The notes below the pieces were generated by a model. It worked only from the letters and a program-made list of their open reading frames with translations. It was not told where the DNA came from and did not search any database. DNA of 64,000 nucleotides, taken from assembly GCF_003334335.1 (NCBI RefSeq), contig NZ_QOWQ01000030.1. The stretch is one strand, 5' to 3'. The position numbers and the translations under genes were made by a program. Positions within the stretch are counted from its first letter, which is position 1; the number at the start of each line of letters is the position of its first letter. The stretch is from Escherichia coli (GTDB taxonomy: Bacteria; Pseudomonadota; Gammaproteobacteria; Enterobacterales; Enterobacteriaceae). Of the stretch, positions 13,235-53,550 are shown one piece after another.

Positions 13235-13969
13235 TTAAAGATGCATTAACTGGCGAAATTCTTTCACTTTGCTGCGGCTGACCGGCACTTCAAAATCCAG
13301 ATCTTTCAGTCGCAGAATGTAGGTGTTATTAAACCACGGTTCGATTTCGCGTATTTTGTTCAGATTGACACAAAATGAGCGATGGCAGCGGAAAAAATGC
13401 GACGGCGGCAGTTTGCTGCAAAATTCGGTAATGTTCATCGGCATTACGTAGGATTCACGCCGCGTATAGACAAAGGTCATTTTCTCGTGCGCTTCGGCGT
13501 AATAGATATCGTTAATTGGCGTGACGATTATTCGCTCATCTTTCACCAGATTAATGGTGTCATTCTCACGCGTTACCGTCGCGGCAGGCGTACTGCTGGT
13601 CTGCTGTTGTTGCCAGGCCGCTTCCAGTTTTTGCAGCATCCCGGTAATACGTGACTCCTGATACGGTTTGAGAATGTAGTCAAACGCCTCCAGTTCAAAC
13701 GCTTCTACCGCATGTTCTTTCCACGCGGTGATGAACACAATAAACGGTTTATGGGCGAACTGGCTGATGTTTTGCGCCAGCAACACGCCATCCAGCGACG
13801 GAATATTGATATCCAGAAAAATGGCGTCGACGCGGTTATGCTGCAAAAACTTCAACACGTCCAGACCGTCGTCAAAGGTGCCGACAATCTCCATCTGGCT
13901 GTGCTCTTTAATTAGCCAGCTCAGTTCCTGTTGTGCCAGGAATTCGTCTTCAACAATGATGACTTTCAC
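13235..13969 (-). CDS. ypdB: LytTR-family response regulator YpdB
   Basis: ORF track begins at a TTG at 13987; trimmed to the GTG at 13969 (cac on the + strand at 13967..13969), giving VKVIIVEDE... and 244 aa; receiver domain plus LytTR DNA-binding domain. Confidence 0.82.
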   Translation of the reverse strand: MKVIIVEDEFLAQQELSWLIKEHSQMEIVGTFDDGLDVLKFLQHNRVDAIFLDINIPSLDGVLLAQNISQFAHKPFIVFITAWKEHAVEAFELEAFDYILKPYQESRITGMLQKLEAAWQQQQTSSTPAATVTRENDTINLVKDERIIVTPINDIYYAEAHEKMTFVYTRRESYVMPMNITEFCSKLPPSHFFRCHRSFCVNLNKIREIEPWFNNTYILRLKDLDFEVPVSRSKVKEFRQLMHL

Positions 13970-13983
13970 AATATCACTCCGGC

Positions 13984-15681
13984 TCAAAGCAATAACGTAG
14001 CCTGTGAGGCGACTGGGGTGCGTTGGTTAGGAATGTAAAACGCAATTTCCGTCCCCGGCTCCAGGCGGCGGATATGCAGCCCCTCGCCATACAATAACTT
14101 CACGCGATGATGGACATTCAGCAGGCCAATTTTATTGCCCGGCATTTCATTCGCTTCGACCCGCTCAATCACCTTTGGATCGATGCCGTGCCCGGTATCT
14201 CGCACCGCAATGCGTACCCGATTTCCGCACTCTGCAACGCTGATGGTGACAACGCCTTTACCTTTGCAAGGCTGAATACCGTGGACAATGGCGTTCTCCA
14301 CCAACGGCTGGATCAGCAGGCTGGGAATGCAGCAATTCACCTCTTCATCAATATCATAGATAACCGTCAGCTTGTCACCAAAGCGGGCCTGCTCAATGGC
14401 AATATAGTCTTTAATTTGATACAGCTCTTTTTTGATATCGATTTGCTCATCGTCTTTTAATTCAATGTTATAGCGCAGATAACGCGACAGATTAAAGATC
14501 AACTGGCGAGCGGTATCCGGATTCAGACGGATTGACGATGAAATAGCGTTCAGAGCGTTAAACAGAAAATGGGGATTAATTTTGCTTTGCAGGGCGCGAA
14601 GCTCTGCCTTATTTGCCATTTCACGTAGCTGCTCGGCGCGTGAAACCTCCAGTTGCGTGGAGATGATTTGCGACAGACCGACCGCCATTTCCTGTAATGA
14701 CGAGGTGATCTGATGCGCGTGGCAGTAGTAAATTTTCAGCGTTCCGGTCACGACCCCTTTCTCCCACAATGGGATCACCAGCATGGAATGAATCTCTGGT
14801 GTGCGGTGGGCTTCATCATTGTTTTTAATGATGATTTTTCCGTAATTCATCGCCTGACGGGTAGTCGGGCTAATGAAGTCATCGCCATTCTGATAGTTAT
14901 GTTCACCCACGCCAACATAGGCCAGCACATGATCGGTATTAGTAATCGCCACCGCATCGGCGTGAATGTCATCGCGGATAATTTCGCAGACCTTGCGTAA
15001 TGACTCGCTATTGACATGGCGAAACAGCGGTAGCGTTTTGTTGGCGATATCCAGCGCCAGCTTGGCCTGCCGCGCGGCGCTGGCCTCTTTTTCGCCCTCA
15101 ACGCTTTGCACCAGAAGCACAATAAAGCCGATACAGACGCTACCGAGGATCATTGGAATGCCGATTTTAGAGACGATATCGATCCCCAACGCGGTAGTTG
15201 GTGCCCAGACAATTACCAGAATCATGGTCAACGTCTCACACAACATGCCGCCGAGAATACCGACGCGCCAGCGCTGTGCTTTGGGGATTTTCAGGTTGAT
15301 CCAGCCCGATATACAACCCGCCAGAATGCTGGTGATAAAGCAGGGGATCGCCGTCACGCCGCCGATATCAATTAAATACCGGTGAATACCCGCAATCACG
15401 CCGGTAATGATGCCTACCCACGGGCCAAACAGAATCCCGCCGGACATCACCGCGATAATACGTACGTTCACCAGCGAGCCTTCTACGGGAACGCCGGACC
15501 AGGTGCTGAACAGGGCGAACAGCGAGAAAATGGCGGTAACGGCGAGCAATTCTTTTGGGGAGTGCGCCGACTTGTGCAACAGTTCGCGAAACAGGCGGAT
15601 ACGGATGAGAAAGAACAGGCAGATAAGCATTAACGCTGCCCGATCGAAGACCGCCAGCAGCATGTTGAATATTTCGTGCAC
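13984..15681 (-). CDS. ypdA: Sensor histidine kinase YpdA (LytS-type 5TM sensor, GAF, HisKA/HATPase)
   Basis: 565-aa ORF with an N-terminal multi-pass membrane domain and C-terminal kinase motifs; the stop overlaps the ypdB 5' end. Confidence 0.88.
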
Positions 15682-17359: not shown

Positions 17360-17431
17360 TTAGATCATCAGGGCAAAAGTACCGGCCCAAACGATGACCA
17401 TAAAAGAAATGCCCATAAAGAAATATTTCAC
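17360..17431 (-). CDS. ypdK: Small membrane protein YpdK (23 aa)
   Basis: GTG-initiated mini-ORF encoding VKYFFMGISFMVIVWAGTFALMI; codons checked by hand; convergent with and abutting the alaC terminator. Confidence 0.6.
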   Translation of the reverse strand: MKYFFMGISFMVIVWAGTFALMI

Positions 17432-17786
17432 TTTACATCTCTCCGCGTAATTACTGTTACGCCTGAATGACTTCATTACACCTGATACAGTGAGTTGACA
17501 CCGGGCAAAGCGACCTTAAAAGCCCTGTATTTTACCGTGGGCATCACCCCAGAATTCTGAGCTAAACTGCTCGAGACGGCGCTAATGTACGCCTAAAACT
17601 GAAACGAGACAAGAGGCATTTTCTTATTTACTTTTAGTAACTTACAAGTGTCTCATATCGGCGACAGTTTAATTTCTGACGGTAATAATTAGATATTCAG
17701 CGAAGGAAAAAACCTTAAGAAAAAAGCCATAAAAACCATGAGGTTATTATGGCCGATTTGAGGAGGGAAAGAGTAAGAGCAGTTTG

Positions 17787-43202: not shown

Positions 43203-43487
43203 ATGAGTAAATGTAGTGCTGATGAAACCCCGGTTTGCTGCTGTATGGATGTTGGCACCATTATGGACAACTCCGACTGCACCGCGTCTTACAGCCGCGT
43301 GTTTGCAAACCGCGCAGAAGCAGAGCAAACGCTGGCGGCGCTGACTGAAAAAGCCCGTAGCGTGGAATCTGAACCTTGCAAAATCACCCCGACTTTCACT
43401 GAAGAGTCTGACGGTGTGCGCCTGGATATCGATTTCACTTTTGCCTGCGAAGCTGAAATGCTGATTTTCCAGCTGGGTCTGCGTTAA
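43203..43487 (+). CDS. yfcZ: UPF0381-family small protein YfcZ
   Basis: ORF 43179..43487 trimmed to the ATG at 43203 (MSKCSADETPVCCCMDVGTIMDN...), 94 aa. Confidence 0.75.
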   Translation: MSKCSADETPVCCCMDVGTIMDNSDCTASYSRVFANRAEAEQTLAALTEKARSVESEPCKITPTFTEESDGVRLDIDFTFACEAEMLIFQLGLR

Positions 43488-43667: not shown

Positions 43668-44978
43668 ATGGGTCAGGTTTTACCGCTGGTTACCCGCCAG
43701 GGCGATCGTATCGCCATTGTTAGCGGTTTACGTACGCCTTTTGCCCGTCAGGCGACGGCTTTTCATGGCATTCCCGCGGTTGATTTAGGGAAGATGGTGG
43801 TAGGCGAACTGCTGGCACGCAGCGAGATCCCCGCCGAAGTGATTGAACAACTGGTCTTTGGTCAGGTCGTACAAATGCCTGAAGCCCCCAACATTGCGCG
43901 TGAAATTGTTCTCGGTACGGGAATGAATGTACATACCGATGCTTACAGCGTCAGCCGCGCTTGCGCTACCAGTTTCCAGGCAGTTGCAAACGTCGCAGAA
44001 AGCCTGATGGCGGGAACTATTCGAGCGGGGATTGCCGGTGGGGCAGATTCCTCTTCGGTATTGCCAATTGGCGTCAGTAAAAAACTGGCGCGCGTGCTGG
44101 TTGATGTCAACAAAGCTCGTACCATGAGCCAGCGACTGAAACTCTTCTCTCGCCTGCGTTTGCGCGACTTAATGCCCGTACCACCTGCGGTAGCAGAATA
44201 TTCTACCGGCTTGCGGATGGGCGACACCGCAGAGCAAATGGCGAAAACCTACGGCATCACCCGAGAACAGCAAGATGCATTAGCGCACCGTTCGCATCAG
44301 CGTGCCGCTCAGGCATGGTCAGACGGAAAACTCAAAGAAGAGGTGATGACTGCCTTTATCCCTCCTTATAAACAACCGCTTGTCGAAGACAACAATATTC
44401 GCGGTAATTCCTCGCTTGCCGATTACGCAAAGCTGCGCCCGGCGTTTGATCGCAAACACGGAACGGTAACGGCGGCAAACAGTACGCCGCTGACCGATGG
44501 CGCGGCAGCGGTGATCCTGATGACTGAATCCCGGGCGAAAGAATTAGGGCTGGTGCCGCTGGGGTATCTGCGCAGCTACGCATTTACTGCGATTGATGTC
44601 TGGCAGGACATGTTGCTCGGTCCAGCCTGGTCAACACCGCTGGCGCTGGAGCGTGCCGGTTTGACGATGAGCGATCTGACATTGATCGATATGCACGAAG
44701 CCTTTGCAGCTCAGACGCTGGCGAATATTCAGTTGCTGGGTAGTGAACGTTTTGCTCGTGAAGCACTGGGGCGTGCACATGCCACTGGCGAAGTGGACGA
44801 TAGCAAATTTAACGTGCTTGGCGGTTCGATTGCTTACGGGCATCCCTTCGCGGCGACCGGCGCGCGGATGATTACCCAGACATTGCATGAACTTCGCCGT
44901 CGCGGCGGTGGATTTGGTTTAGTTACCGCCTGTGCTGCCGGTGGGCTTGGCGCGGCAATGGTTCTGGAGGCGGAATAA
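43668..44978 (+). CDS. fadI: 3-ketoacyl-CoA thiolase FadI (anaerobic beta-oxidation)
   Basis: 436-aa ORF; thiolase fold with an active-site cysteine region ([12 protein letters not shown]). Confidence 0.92.
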
Positions 44979-47122
44979 TGGAAATGACATCAGCGTTTAC
45001 CCTTAATGTTCGTCTGGACAACATTGCCGTTATCACCATCGACGTACCGGGTGAGAAAATGAATACCCTGAAGGCGGAGTTTGCCTCGCAGGTGCGCGCC
45101 ATTATTAAGCAACTCCGTGAAAACAAAGAGTTGCGAGGCGTGGTGTTTGTCTCCGCTAAACCGGACAACTTCATTGCTGGCGCAGACATCAACATGATCG
45201 GCAACTGCAAAACGGCGCAAGAAGCGGAAGCTCTGGCGCGGCAGGGCCAACAGTTGATGGCGGAGATTCATGCTTTGCCCATTCAGGTTATCGCGGCTAT
45301 TCATGGCGCTTGCCTGGGTGGTGGGCTGGAGTTGGCGCTGGCGTGCCACGGTCGCGTTTGTACTGACGATCCTAAAACGGTGCTCGGTTTGCCTGAAGTA
45401 CAACTTGGATTGTTACCCGGTTCAGGCGGCACCCAGCGTTTACCGCGTCTGATAGGCGTCAGCACAGCATTAGAGATGATCCTCACCGGAAAACAACTTC
45501 GGGCGAAACAGGCATTAAAGCTGGGGCTGGTGGATGACGTTGTTCCGCACTCCATTCTGCTGGAAGCCGCTGTTGAGCTGGCAAAGAAGGAGCGCCCATC
45601 TTCCCGCCCTCTACCTGTACGCGAGCGTATTCTGGCGGGGCCGTTAGGTCGTGCGCTGCTGTTCAAAATGGTCGGCAAGAAAACAGAACACAAAACTCAA
45701 GGCAATTATCCGGCGACAGAACGCATCCTGGAGGTTGTTGAAACGGGATTAGCGCAGGGCACCAGCAGCGGTTATGACGCCGAAGCTCGGGCGTTTGGCG
45801 AACTGGCGATGACGCCACAATCGCAGGCGCTGCGTAGTATCTTTTTTGCCAGTACGGACGTGAAGAAAGATCCCGGCAGTGATGCGCCGCCTGCGCCATT
45901 AAACAGCGTGGGGATTTTAGGTGGTGGCTTGATGGGCGGCGGTATTGCTTATGTCACTGCTTGTAAAGCGGGGATTCCGGTCAGAATTAAAGATATCAAC
46001 CCGCAGGGCATAAATCATGCGCTGAAGTACAGTTGGGATCAGCTGGAGGGCAAAGTTCGCCGTCGTCATCTCAAAGCCAGCGAACGTGACAAACAGCTGG
46101 CATTAATCTCCGGAACGACGGACTATCGCGGCTTTGCCCATCGCGATCTGATTATTGAAGCGGTGTTTGAAAATCTCGAATTGAAACAACAGATGGTGGC
46201 GGAAGTTGAGCAAAATTGCGCCGCTCATACCATCTTTGCTTCGAATACGTCATCTTTACCGATTGGTGATATCGCCGCTCACGCCACGCGACCTGAGCAA
46301 GTTATCGGCCTGCATTTCTTCAGTCCGGTGGAAAAAATGCCGCTGGTGGAGATTATTCCTCATGCGGGGACATCGGCGCAAACCATCGCTACCACAGTAA
46401 AACTGGCGAAAAAACAGGGTAAAACGCCAATTGTCGTGCGTGACAAAGCCGGTTTTTACGTCAATCGCATCTTAGCGCCTTACATTAATGAAGCTATCCG
46501 CATGTTGACCCAAGGTGAACGGGTAGAGCACATTGATGCCGCGCTAGTGAAATTTGGTTTTCCGGTAGGCCCAATCCAACTTTTGGATGAGGTAGGAATC
46601 GACACCGGGACTAAAATTATTCCTGTACTGGAAGCCGCTTATGGAGAACGTTTTAGCGCGCCTGCAAATGTTGTTTCTTCAATTTTGAACGACGATCGCA
46701 AAGGCAGAAAAAATGGCCGGGGTTTCTATCTTTATGGTCAGAAAGGGCGTAAAAGCAAAAAACAGGTCGATCCCGCCATTTACCCGCTGATTGGCACACA
46801 AGGGCAGGGGCGAATCTCCGCACCGCAGGTTGCTGAACGGTGTGTGATGTTGATGCTGAATGAAGCAGTACGTTGTGTTGATGAGCAGGTTATCCGTAGC
46901 GTGCGTGACGGGGATATTGGCGCGGTATTTGGCATTGGTTTTCCGCCATTTCTCGGTGGACCGTTCCGCTATATCGATTCTCTCGGCGCGGGCGAAGTGG
47001 TTGCAATAATGCAACGACTTGCCACGCAGTATGGTTCCCGTTTTACCCCTTGCGAGCGTTTGGTCGAGATGGGCGCGCGTGGGGAAAGTTTTTGGAAAAC
47101 AACTGCAACTGACCTGCAATAA
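44978..47122 (+). CDS. fadJ: Fatty-acid oxidation complex alpha subunit FadJ (enoyl-CoA hydratase / 3-hydroxyacyl-CoA dehydrogenase)
   Basis: 714-aa ORF with an N-terminal crotonase domain and C-terminal NAD-binding 3-HCDH domains; start overlaps the fadI stop. Confidence 0.92.
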
Positions 47123-49135: not shown

Positions 49136-51781
49136 ATGCCTGACCATTCTCTTTTTCGATTACGGATTCTTCCGTGGTGCATTGCGCTGGCAATGTCAGG
49201 GAGTTATAGCAGTGTCTGGGCTGAAGACGACATTCAGTTTGATTCCCGTTTTCTGGAATTAAAAGGCGACACAAAAATTGATCTGAAGCGTTTTTCCAGC
49301 CAGGGGTATGTTGAGCCCGGAAAATACAATTTACAGGTTCAACTAAATAAACAGCCATTGGCGGAAGAGTACGATATTTACTGGTATGCTGGTGAAGATG
49401 ACGTTAGCAAAAGCTATGCTTGTCTGACACCGGAACTGGTGGCGCAGTTTGGTTTAAAAGAAGACGTGGCGAAAAATCTGCAATGGAGCCACGATGGTAA
49501 ATGCCTGAAGCCCGGTCAACTGGAAGGCGTGGAAATTAAGGCTGATTTAAGCCAGTCCGCATTAGTCATTTCACTACCGCAGGCTTACCTCGAATATACC
49601 TGGCCCGACTGGGATCCACCTTCTCGTTGGGATGATGGCATCTCCGGGATCATTGCGGACTACAGCATCACTGCGCAAACACGACACGAAGAAAATGGCG
49701 GCGATGACAGTAACGAGATCAGCGGCAACGGGACGGTCGGGGTTAACCTGGGGCCATGGCGTATGCGCGCTGACTGGCAGACCAACTATCAACATACGCG
49801 CAGTAATGATGATGACGATGAATTTGGCGGCGATGACACACAAAAAAAATGGGAGTGGAGTCGCTATTATGCCTGGCGGGCGTTACCGTCATTAAAAGCC
49901 AAACTGGCGCTGGGCGAAGATTACCTCAATTCCGATATTTTCGACGGTTTTAATTATGTTGGTGGCAGTGTCAGCACTGACGATCAAATGTTGCCTCCCA
50001 ATCTGCGCGGCTACGCGCCAGACATTTCCGGCGTGGCACACACCACAGCAAAAGTGACCGTCAGCCAGATGGGGCGTGTGATTTACGAAACGCAGGTTCC
50101 GGCTGGACCGTTTCGTATTCAGGATCTTGGTGATTCCGTCTCCGGTACGTTGCATATTCGCATTGAAGAACAGAACGGCCAGGTGCAGGAATATGACATC
50201 AGCACCGCCTCGATGCCATACCTCACTCGCCTAGGCCAGGTTCGCTATAAGATCATGATGGGACGTCCGCAAGAGTGGGGCCACCATGTCGAGGGGGGAT
50301 TTTTCTCTGGTGCTGAAGCCTCCTGGGGCATCGCTAACGGCTGGTCGTTATATGGCGGTGCGCTGGGTGATGAAAACTATCAGTCTGCGGCGCTGGGCGT
50401 CGGTCGCGATTTGTCTACCTTCGGCGCGGTCGCGTTTGATGTTACTCATTCGCATACCAAACTGGATAAAGACACCGCTTATGGCAAAGGTTCGCTGGAC
50501 GGTAACTCCTTCCGTGTGAGTTATTCCAAAGACTTTGACCAGCTCAACAGCCGCGTCACTTTCGCTGGATATCGCTTCTCGGAAGAGAACTTTATGACCA
50601 TGAGCGAGTATCTGGATGCCAGTGACAGCGAAATGGTCCGTACGGGCAACGACAAAGAGATGTACACCGCCACTTATAACCAGAACTTCCGCGATGCGGG
50701 TGTTTCGGTTTATCTCAACTATACCCGCCATACCTACTGGGATCGTGAGGAGCAGACAAACTACAACATCATGCTCTCCCACTATTTCAATATGGGCAGC
50801 ATTCGTAATATGAGCGTTTCCCTGACTGGCTACCGCTACGAGTATGACAACCGGGCGGATAAGGGCATGTACATTTCGCTCAGTATGCCGTGGGGCGACA
50901 ACAGTACCGTTAGCTATAACGGCAACTATGGCAGTGGGACGGACAGCAGCCAGGTCGGTTATTTTAGCCGTGTCGATGACGCGACTCACTATCAGTTGAA
51001 CATCGGCACCAGTGACAAACACACCAGCGTTGATGGCTACTACAGCCATGATGGTTCGCTGGCGCAGGTTGACCTCAGTGCGAACTACCATGAAGGGCAA
51101 TACACCTCTGCGGGCTTGTCGTTACAGGGCGGCGCAACGCTTACTACCCACGGCGGCGCACTTCACCGTACCCAGAATATGGGCGGGACACGCCTGCTGA
51201 TTGATGCCGATGGCGTTGCCGATGTTCCGGTGGAAGGTAACGGGGCTGCTGTTTATACCAATATGTTTGGTAAAGCCGTCGTTTCTGACGTTAACAATTA
51301 TTATCGCAATCAGGCGTATATCGACCTCAACAAATTGCCGGAAAACGCCGAAGCAACCCAGTCGGTGGTGCAAGCCACGCTAACTGAAGGAGCCATTGGC
51401 TACCGCAAATTTGCCGTCATCAGTGGTCAAAAAGCGATGGCGGTGCTGCGTTTACAAGATGGCAGCCATCCACCGTTTGGCGCAGAAGTAAAAAATGATA
51501 ACGAGCAGACAGTGGGCCTTGTCGATGATGACGGTAGTGTCTATCTGGCTGGGGTGAAACCTGGCGAACATATGAGTGTGTTCTGGAGTGGTGTTGCGCA
51601 TTGCGATATCAACCTGCCGGACCCGCTGCCTGCCGATCTGTTTAACGGCTTGTTACTGCCATGCCAGCATAAAGGCAACGTCGCGCCGGTTGTTCCTGAT
51701 GACATAAAGCCTGTCATTCAGGAGCAGACGCAACAGGTGACACCCACCGATCCCCCTGTTTCTGTTTCAGCTAACCAATAA
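49136..51781 (+). CDS. yfcU: Fimbrial outer-membrane usher (YfcU-type), intact full-length frame
   Basis: 881-aa uninterrupted ORF with a signal peptide; length and composition typical of FimD/PapC ushers, including a C-terminal Cys pair region. Confidence 0.85.
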   Translation: MPDHSLFRLRILPWCIALAMSGSYSSVWAEDDIQFDSRFLELKGDTKIDLKRFSSQGYVEPGKYNLQVQLNKQPLAEEYDIYWYAGEDDVSKSYACLTPELVAQFGLKEDVAKNLQWSHDGKCLKPGQLEGVEIKADLSQSALVISLPQAYLEYTWPDWDPPSRWDDGISGIIADYSITAQTRHEENGGDDSNEISGNGTVGVNLGPWRMRADWQTNYQHTRSNDDDDEFGGDDTQKKWEWSRYYAWRALPSLKAKLALGEDYLNSDIFDGFNYVGGSVSTDDQMLPPNLRGYAPDISGVAHTTAKVTVSQMGRVIYETQVPAGPFRIQDLGDSVSGTLHIRIEEQNGQVQEYDISTASMPYLTRLGQVRYKIMMGRPQEWGHHVEGGFFSGAEASWGIANGWSLYGGALGDENYQSAALGVGRDLSTFGAVAFDVTHSHTKLDKDTAYGKGSLDGNSFRVSYSKDFDQLNSRVTFAGYRFSEENFMTMSEYLDASDSEMVRTGNDKEMYTATYNQNFRDAGVSVYLNYTRHTYWDREEQTNYNIMLSHYFNMGSIRNMSVSLTGYRYEYDNRADKGMYISLSMPWGDNSTVSYNGNYGSGTDSSQVGYFSRVDDATHYQLNIGTSDKHTSVDGYYSHDGSLAQVDLSANYHEGQYTSAGLSLQGGATLTTHGGALHRTQNMGGTRLLIDADGVADVPVEGNGAAVYTNMFGKAVVSDVNNYYRNQAYIDLNKLPENAEATQSVVQATLTEGAIGYRKFAVISGQKAMAVLRLQDGSHPPFGAEVKNDNEQTVGLVDDDGSVYLAGVKPGEHMSVFWSGVAHCDINLPDPLPADLFNGLLLPCQHKGNVAPVVPDDIKPVIQEQTQQVTPTDPPVSVSANQ

Positions 51782-51800: not shown

Positions 51801-52553
51801 ATGTCTGATTTACTTTGCTCTGCCAAATTGGGTGCTATGACGCTGGCGTTACTGCTTAGCGCTACCAGTTTGTCTGCCCTGGCGTCTGTAACGCCAGATC
51901 GTACCCGTTTGATATTTAATGAAAGCGACAAATCAATCAGCGTGACGCTGCGTAATAACGATCCGAAACTCCCTTATCTGGCTCAAAGCTGGATTGAAGA
52001 TGAAAAGGGTAACAAGATCACCTCGCCGTTAACTGTGCTGCCGCCAGTGCAACGCATCGATTCAATGATGAACGGGCAGGTAAAAGTGCAGGGAATGCCG
52101 GATATCAACAAATTGCCAGCCGATCGTGAAAGCATGTTCTACTTTAACGTGCGCGAGATCCCGCCAAAATCAAACAAACCCAATACCCTGCAAATCGCGC
52201 TGCAAACGCGTATCAAGTTGTTCTGGCGACCAAAGGCGCTGGAAAAGGTCAGTATGAAAAGTCCGTGGCAGCACAAGGTGACGCTCACCCGCAGCGGTCA
52301 GGCATTTACCGTCAATAACCCAACGCCGTACTACGTGATTATCAGCAACGCCAGTGCGCAGAAAAACGGTAATCCAGCTGCAGGGTTCTCGCCTCTGGTC
52401 ATTGAGCCGAAAACCACGGTACCGCTGAATGTGAAAATGGATAGCGTACCGGTGCTGACTTACGTCAACGACTTTGGCGCACGGATGCCGCTGTTCTTCC
52501 AGTGCAATGGCAACAGCTGCCAGGTGGATGAAGAGCAGAGCCGCAAAGGCTGA
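51801..52553 (+). CDS. yfcS: Periplasmic fimbrial chaperone YfcS (PapD-like)
   Basis: 250-aa ORF with a signal peptide and two-domain chaperone length. Confidence 0.85.
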   Translation: MSDLLCSAKLGAMTLALLLSATSLSALASVTPDRTRLIFNESDKSISVTLRNNDPKLPYLAQSWIEDEKGNKITSPLTVLPPVQRIDSMMNGQVKVQGMPDINKLPADRESMFYFNVREIPPKSNKPNTLQIALQTRIKLFWRPKALEKVSMKSPWQHKVTLTRSGQAFTVNNPTPYYVIISNASAQKNGNPAAGFSPLVIEPKTTVPLNVKMDSVPVLTYVNDFGARMPLFFQCNGNSCQVDEEQSRKG

Positions 52554-53065
52554 TGACGGGGGGAGTTATGAGTCAAAAGTTTGTAGTGGGCGCAGGGCTG
52601 CTGGTATGCAGTGTCTGTAGTTTATCTGCTATGGCTGGTAGTAAACCCGTGGATTTAATTCTGCGCGTGTTGGTCGATGCTCCGCCACCCTGTTCAATCA
52701 AGGGCAGCCAGGTAGAGTTCGGCAATATGATTGCTGATAACGTTGATGGCACCAATTATCGGCAAGATGCGAAATACACGTTGAACTGCACAAACAGTCT
52801 TGCTAACGACTTGCGGATGCAACTTAAGGGCAATACCTCAACGATTAACGGCGAAACGGTACTCAGTACCAATATCACCGGGCTGGGCATTCGGATAGAA
52901 AATAGCGCCGATAACTCATTGTTTGCCGTCGGTGAAAATAGCTGGACGCCATTTAATATCAATAACCAGCCACAGTTGAAGGCTGTACCTGTGAAGGCAA
53001 GCGGGGCGCAACTTGCTGCGGGCGAGTTTAACGCCAGTTTGACCATGGTGGTGGACTATCAATGA
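52553..53065 (+). CDS. yfcR: Fimbrial minor subunit YfcR
   Basis: 170-aa ORF overlapping the yfcS stop (TGATG); an alternative ATG at 52568 with a GGGGGAG Shine-Dalgarno is possible; signal peptide and pilin-like C-terminus. Confidence 0.75.
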   Translation: MTGGVMSQKFVVGAGLLVCSVCSLSAMAGSKPVDLILRVLVDAPPPCSIKGSQVEFGNMIADNVDGTNYRQDAKYTLNCTNSLANDLRMQLKGNTSTINGETVLSTNITGLGIRIENSADNSLFAVGENSWTPFNINNQPQLKAVPVKASGAQLAAGEFNASLTMVVDYQ

Positions 53066-53550
53066 GAAAGACTTTCTTAACCCTGCTTTGTGTCAGTAGC
53101 GCCATAGCTCATGCTGCTGATGAAGACATCACCTTTCACGGGACATTATTGTCACCGCCAACCTGTAGCATCAGCGGTGGTAAAACCATTGAAGTCGAAT
53201 TTCGCGATCTCATTATCGACGACATCAACGGCAACTATGGTCGTAAAGAGGTGCCATATGAACTCACTTGTGACTCGACGACCCGTCATCCAGATTGGGA
53301 GATGACCCTCACCTGGACTGGTACACAAACCAGTTTTAATGATGCAGCAATTGAAACTGATGTACCCGGTTTTGGTATCGAGCTTCAGCACGATGGTCAG
53401 CGTTTTAAACTCAATACTCCGCTTGCTATCAACGCCACTGATTTTACGCAAAAGCCGAAGCTGGAGGCCGTACCGGTAAAAGCGAGTGATGCTGTGTTAA
53501 GCGATACGAATTTTTCGGCTTACGCAACATTACGGGTGGATTATCAATGA
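53062..53550 (+). CDS. yfcQ: Fimbrial minor subunit YfcQ
   Basis: 162-aa ORF with a signal peptide; C-terminal ATLRVDYQ strand motif. Confidence 0.78.
   Translation: MRKTFLTLLCVSSAIAHAADEDITFHGTLLSPPTCSISGGKTIEVEFRDLIIDDINGNYGRKEVPYELTCDSTTRHPDWEMTLTWTGTQTSFNDAAIETDVPGFGIELQHDGQRFKLNTPLAINATDFTQKPKLEAVPVKASDAVLSDTNFSAYATLRVDYQ

Follow-up and report, generated by a model that had tools for sequence, protein, structure and literature searches.

Routine GTG start codons and gene overlaps in the nupC-fabB segment of the Escherichia coli chromosome, already present in the RefSeq annotation

Where does translation of ypdB begin in E. coli? The junction between ypdA and ypdB reads 5'-GCT TTGA GCC GGAG TGATATT GTG AAA GTC-3' on the minus strand, and it contains two in-frame codons from which ypdB could be read. 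The upstream one is a TTG (13985..13987, minus strand). It shares two bases with the ypdA stop codon TGA (13984..13986; RefSeq ypdA CDS 13984..15681) in the form TTGA, an overlap that the preliminary description of this DNA had reported correctly. The open reading frame (ORF) track, which takes the longest ORF, begins ypdB at this TTG (13235..13987, 250 aa). The second one is a GTG (13967..13969, minus strand), located six codons downstream of the TTG. It is the start of the RefSeq CDS (13235..13969, 244 aa). A Shine-Dalgarno sequence, GGAG (13977..13980, minus strand), is found 7 nt upstream of the GTG, inside the 5-10 nt expected of a ribosome-binding site and within the 14-nt spacer between ypdA and ypdB. 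The predicted N-terminus of YpdB is MKVIIVEDEFLAQQELSWLIK from the GTG versus MSRSDIVK... from the TTG. The ypdAB system is reportedly pyruvate-responsive. A GTG start codon is decoded by the initiator tRNA as formyl-methionine.

The window, meaning here the whole stretch of 64,000 nucleotides that was analysed, corresponds to the E. coli chromosome segment from nupC to fabB. It contains 55 protein-coding genes, all of which translate cleanly. Many E. coli chromosomes, among them that of K-12 MG1655, share the 5.3 kb around ypdA-ypdB with 100% identity, and a 24-kb stretch further along the window matches other E. coli strains perfectly. Gene coordinates are those of the RefSeq annotation of K-12 and of strain Z1323PEC0012, transferred onto the window. 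GTG starts had been proposed for ypdB (13969), ypdK (17431), prmB (55697), and mnmC (62373), and all four agree with the RefSeq coordinates.

Two further genes in the window, absent from the preliminary description, are also initiated with GTG. They are ypdA (15679..15681, minus strand, first base at 15681) and emrK (31013..31015, plus strand, first base at 31013). The ypdA start is based on the RefSeq mapping and on the codons of its orthologs, which are GTG in Citrobacter and Enterobacter and ATG in Klebsiella. The emrK start is taken solely from the annotation.

For ypdB, the orthologous locus was compared among 80 species of Enterobacteriaceae, and each junction was read. All 80 have a start codon at the position of the E. 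coli GTG (ATG in 56, GTG in 23, and TTG in one). YpdB products beginning with (M)KVIIVEDE are predicted in 77 species. Each of the remaining three N-termini, MNVIIVEDE, MKIIIVEDE, and LKVIIVEDE, differs by one residue. A GGAG is seen a few nucleotides upstream of the start in most of these junctions, by estimate rather than count. In most genera, the frame is closed by a stop codon 1-5 codons ahead of the conserved start. Profiles of LytTR-type response regulators start at residue 7-8 of the 250-aa ORF. The sequence upstream of the GTG is predicted to pair with the 16S rRNA tail at -6.7 kcal/mol and that upstream of the TTG at -2.5 kcal/mol, with a mean of -2.2 kcal/mol at random positions. 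Based on the conserved start codon, the GGAG, the upstream stop codons, the profile starts, and the rRNA pairing, translation of ypdB is predicted to begin at the GTG (13969) rather than at the TTG (13987). The proposal that the longest-ORF start is not the true one is thus upheld by conservation across the 80 species.

These data can be set against a reading in which the TTG on the ypdA stop codon is the sole start, the protein has 250 aa, and the GTG is an internal valine codon. The TTG is in frame and overlaps the ypdA stop codon in the manner of classic ATGA junctions, and the longest-ORF rule yields it. However, the TTG is confined to four of the 80 loci, all from Escherichia, and the sequence there is TTTAA in Citrobacter. 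In most other genera, a stop codon interrupts the frame after ypdA has ended and before the conserved ypdB start is reached. The TTG has no ribosome-binding site upstream, as its pairing energy is at the background level, and the six extra residues fall outside the coverage of the family profiles. A sole start at the TTG is therefore highly improbable.

A milder version would have two starts for ypdB in E. coli. Here, most of the protein would be the 244-aa form from the GTG, with a minor 250-aa form arising when ribosomes reinitiate at UUGA. E. coli genes often have alternative starts close to one another; in the same window, the aroC N-termini MMAGNT... and MAGNT... were both detected. In Klebsiella and Raoultella, an in-frame ATG, five codons ahead of the conserved ypdB start, overlaps the ypdA stop codon as ATGA. 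On the other hand, TTG is the weakest among the three common start codons, and the TTG of ypdB has neither a ribosome-binding site nor conservation beyond Escherichia. It is thus very unlikely, though with a slightly better chance than a sole TTG start, that ribosomes in Escherichia occasionally restart at UUG after the ypdA UGA and make a minor, hypothetical YpdB with six extra residues (MSRSDI-). If they did, the TTG form would be a lineage-specific second proteoform of the response regulator YpdB, and a second, independent case of such YpdB reinitiation would be the ATGA of Klebsiella and Raoultella.

Once the GTG is taken as the ypdB start, ypdA and ypdB do not overlap. Coupling is expected for an overlap or a distance of up to +10 nt, and the spacer here is 14 nt. 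In native E. coli gene pairs, a spacer of +14 nt lowers reinitiation by 40-80%, and distances from +11 to +20 nt constitute a zone where coupling varies from gene to gene (PMC10666635). The 14-nt length of the spacer and the GGAG within it suggest that ypdB is initiated mostly independently. Translation of ypdB would thus begin mainly through its own GGAG on the shared ypdAB mRNA, and ribosomes coming from the ypdA stop codon would contribute by reinitiation at most in part. In this respect the ypdA-ypdB junction, where a +14-nt spacer holds a separate ribosome-binding site and the genes do not overlap, differs from known systems of termination-reinitiation coupling.

True overlaps are found at eight other pairs of genes in the window, all on the plus strand. 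Overlaps of 1 nt are seen as TAATG at ypdF/ypdE (8803..8807), emrK/emrY (32174..32178), fadI/fadJ (44976..44980), mepA/yfcA (58575..58579), and yfcA/epmC (59384..59388), and as TGATG at yfcS/yfcR (52551..52555). Overlaps of 4 nt are seen as ATGA at yfcR/yfcQ (53062..53065) and yfcQ/yfcP (53547..53550). The junctions that the preliminary description named are all present.

Some of these overlaps are conserved in other genera. Salmonella, Yersinia, and the record L087 retain the fadI/fadJ overlap, which is 4 nt long in a Klebsiella-like locus. The mepA/yfcA and yfcA/epmC overlaps are conserved in Salmonella and in the Klebsiella-like locus. Among these three junctions, overlaps are replaced by short gaps in Yersinia, Erwinia, and Edwardsiella, with the exception of fadI/fadJ itself in Yersinia.

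No intergenic distances are more frequent in E. coli, or in prokaryotes at large, than overlaps of 1 nt and 4 nt (PMC6728339, PMC10666635). Translational coupling was observed in four of five native E. coli pairs with a 4-nt overlap (PMC6728339). The eight co-directional pairs in the window have the same 1-nt or 4-nt overlaps as systems with termination-reinitiation coupling. By analogy with the published pairs (PMC6728339, PMC10666635), these junctions can reasonably be expected to couple the neighbouring genes. According to the literature, a ribosome ending the upstream gene would restart on the downstream gene at each of the eight overlaps, and such restarts would keep the outputs of operon partners linked.

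The ypdK gene is initiated in the annotation at a GTG (17429..17431, minus strand; CDS 17360..17431, 23 aa) with a GGAG at 17441-17444. The ORF track starts instead at an upstream in-frame ATG (17474..17476, minus strand), which gives a product of 38 aa. Both the GTG and its upstream GGAG are kept in Citrobacter, Klebsiella, and Enterobacter. In these three genera a TGA is located two codons upstream of the GTG, where E. coli has TGT. Because of this TGA, the 38-aa form is impossible in Citrobacter, Klebsiella, and Enterobacter, and the upstream ATG is rejected. The 23-aa product is nearly invariant. The conserved GTG and the in-frame TGA in the three other genera bear out 17431 as the start proposed earlier. 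There is also an ATG at codon 6 of the 23-aa frame. Initiation at the GTG rather than at this ATG is suggested by the spacing of the GGAG, which is the one point that argues against the ATG.

The largest difference between the ORF track and the annotation is found in prmB. The annotated GTG (55697..55699, plus strand; CDS 55697..56629, 310 aa) follows a GGAGG at 55687-55691, whose pairing to the 16S rRNA tail is -9.3 kcal/mol. The ORF track adds 111 codons (55364..55696, plus strand). This extension begins with an ATG inside smrB (54980..55531), which is encoded on the opposite strand, and then runs through the whole divergent intergenic region between smrB and prmB.

Homologous proteins favour the GTG. 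Among 120 clusters of PrmB homologues, 95 begin at the residue encoded by the GTG, and V or L stands at the first residue in sources where codons are translated literally. The few longer homologue calls have unrelated extensions. The TIGR03533 profile (L3 methyltransferase) starts 12 residues past the GTG, which is residue 124 of the 421-aa ORF, and the alignment to HemK structures is confined to the downstream domain.

Orthologous DNA was compared in six other taxa: Salmonella, a Klebsiella-like gut contig, Yersinia, L087, Erwinia, and Edwardsiella. L087 has the source label Salmonella, yet its PrmB is merely 84% identical. All six have GTG or TTG at the position of the E. coli start, behind a conserved GGAG-type site. 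In five of the six loci, in-frame stop codons are found 9, 10, 12, 28, and 38 codons upstream of the start. The homologue N-termini, the orthologous DNA, and the family profile together support the assignment of the prmB start to 55697. Judged by these comparisons, the 111-codon extension is predicted to be non-coding, and it is not conserved.

For mnmC, the annotated start is a GTG (62371..62373, minus strand; CDS 60367..62373, 668 aa), and the ORF track starts at an upstream in-frame TTG (62431..62433, minus strand; 688 aa), which is rejected. The preliminary description had proposed N-terminal proteomics as a check on its starts, and for mnmC published data provide a peptide that starts at the GTG. 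Deformylation-assisted N-terminomics of E. coli K-12 detected an MnmC peptide of residues 1-22 at the GTG NC_000913:2441764-2441766, the annotated start (PMC13245402, Table S1 row 500). In that table, the row for MnmC has the support of REPARATION only, with no Ribo-RET or INRI. Neither ypdB, ypdK, nor prmB has an entry among the listed rows of TRAINSPOTTER Table S1. The INRI-seq supplementary tables, which give alternative peaks only, contain no annotated start of ypdB, prmB, ypdK, or mnmC.

Conservation and structures agree with the peptide at the mnmC GTG. The GTG is kept in the Klebsiella-like locus, Yersinia, L087, and Erwinia. Constructs for MnmC crystal structures begin at the methionine encoded by the GTG. 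In the structure from Yersinia pestis, 3pvc, chain residue 5 aligns with residue 25 of the ORF, and this offset places the first residue at the GTG codon. The detected N-terminal peptide and the conservation thus substantiate 62373 as the start of mnmC.

The mnmC GTG is essentially without a ribosome-binding site (-2.6 kcal/mol pairing). Likewise, 192 of 806 mapped E. coli starts have none (PMC13245402).

A coding role for the mnmC extension was considered on the ground of conserved residues, with 15 residues of E. coli compared with HIVKIGPPPVTRVTY of Erwinia. It was rejected because in L087 a stop codon is reached upstream before any start codon, Yersinia has a stop codon at position -14, and the detected peptide has methionine at the GTG. 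It is more likely that the conservation in this extension is at the DNA level, as part of a promoter or a 5' leader. When the region between mnmC and fabB was scanned for promoters and terminators, nothing passed the scan thresholds.

In total, 14 of the 55 genes are longer in the ORF track than in the annotation, by 1-111 codons. The extensions are 1 codon in aroC, 2 codons each in dsdC and fadL, 5 in yfcO, 6 in ypdB, 8 in yfcZ, 13 each in nupC and yfdE, 15 in ypdK, 17 in fryB, 20 in mnmC, 22 in lpxP, 62 in epmC, and 111 in prmB. Differences of 6 to 110 residues had been stated in the preliminary description. The differences are real, while the upper bound of 110 is one too low, with prmB at 111. 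The longer starts appear in the ORF track merely because no upstream in-frame stop codon happens to occur. The over-extension is the same artefact as is known from longest-ORF gene calls. Automated gene callers produce it on orthologues too, as in Erwinia, where mnmC is called 28 codons too long from a TTG in the public collection, and in some calls of prmB homologues, which are 4-107 residues too long.

Do the GTG starts and the overlaps reflect something peculiar to this region? GTG starts are used by six of the 55 genes (11%). Among 688 annotated E. coli starts with experimental support, 9% are non-ATG, consisting of 50 GTG and 10 TTG (PMC13245402). Overlaps of 1 nt or 4 nt are seen in eight of the 32 co-directional pairs in the window. 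Pairs within -8 to +6 nt account for 11 of the 32 (34%), somewhat above the 24% genome-wide (707 of 2,987 pairs; PMC10666635), and this is the point in favour of a regional property that would make the number of GTG starts or overlaps unusual. However, the binomial P for the 11 close pairs against the 24% genome-wide is 0.11, four of the 11 come from one fimbrial operon (yfcS to yfcO), and 11% of GTG starts is in line with the background. There is hardly any probability left for such a regional property. The frequencies of GTG starts and of overlaps are those of the E. coli background.

Taken as a whole, the window is very probably explained by normal bacterial start signals. YpdB, YpdK, PrmB, and MnmC would be translated from their annotated GTG codons, and the overlaps would represent the usual arrangement of genes in operons. 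Initiation at these four codons is of the same kind as annotated GUG initiation elsewhere in E. coli; ypdB, ypdK, and prmB have a ribosome-binding site upstream of the GTG, while mnmC has no recognisable one. The GTG starts and the overlaps are routine, already contained in RefSeq, and not new. GUG initiation, coupling at overlaps, and over-extension by the longest-ORF rule are all textbook phenomena. No new biology follows from the GTG starts or the junctions in the window. Their importance is one of bookkeeping: about a quarter of the genes in the window come out too long in a longest-ORF track, and the curated coordinates hold against conservation and, for mnmC, against proteomics.

The window lacks the prophage block of roughly 14 kb, torI through intS, which in K-12 lies in the dsdC-yfdC interval beside the tRNA-Arg gene; its absence was observed at 37659-37903. 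Thus, the source strain is not K-12, despite 100% identity elsewhere. Another difference is seen in the fimbrial usher gene yfcU (49136-51781). The annotation of K-12 MG1655 treats it as a pseudogene interrupted by a stop codon, but it is intact in the window and encodes 881 aa.

At the ypdA-ypdB junction, an in-frame ATG overlaps the ypdA stop codon (ATGA) in Klebsiella, Raoultella, and related loci. Among the orthologous loci fetched from 80 Enterobacteriaceae species, this arrangement was found in L057, L066-L068, L070, L076, L078, L079, and L083. The ATG precedes the conserved ypdB start by five codons, and this ATGA is a clade-specific counterpart of the TTGA of E. coli, where an in-frame TTG overlaps the ypdA stop. 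Directly 5' of the ypdK GTG, E. coli has a minimal ATG-TAA start-stop pair (17433-17438). The corresponding site in the other three genera, Citrobacter, Klebsiella, and Enterobacter, has ATGA instead, which provides the in-frame TGA of these genera. The RefSeq annotation also includes an 18-aa hypothetical protein, WP_418134935.1 (1609-1665), with a 20-nt overlap between its ORF and the start of mntH. This short protein may be a leader peptide.

An in-frame ATG is present 123 nt inside emrK (31136-31138), at about codon 41 of the protein by position. Its position is tabulated for emrK in the INRI-seq supplement with a value of 79.96 (PMC9825163). GTG and ATG are in tandem at the start of aroC (56661-56666). 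The GTG is the start in the raw ORF track, and its product is 1 aa longer than that from the annotated ATG. A published N-terminomics study reports two N-terminal peptides for aroC, one from the GTG and one from the annotated ATG (PMC13245402). Translation of aroC apparently begins at the ORF-track GTG as well as at the annotated ATG. For YfcZ (43203-43487), published N-terminomics reports Met15 as a second N-terminus besides the annotated start.

The 60 nt 5' of the mnmC GTG (62374-62433) were compared with loci L085, L087, and L088, and are conserved at the DNA level among E. coli, the Klebsiella-like locus, and Erwinia. The conserved blocks within them are CACACATCGYTAAGATCG and CGAGTAACTTAC. 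No ribosome-binding site for the mnmC GTG was found in this 60-nt stretch. The stretch may represent a promoter and 5' leader. It is adjoined by GATCGGACTTGTTCGGCGTACAAGTGTACGC (62453-62483), a putative match to the FadR/FabR operator of fabB.

None of the seven Enterobacterales taxa compared at the DNA level (the window and loci L084-L089) starts prmB (55697 in the window) with ATG. Five of them use GTG and the other two TTG, and the codon is preceded by a GGAG-type ribosome-binding site in every one of them. From this sequence comparison, prmB appears to have kept a weak start codon across these taxa.
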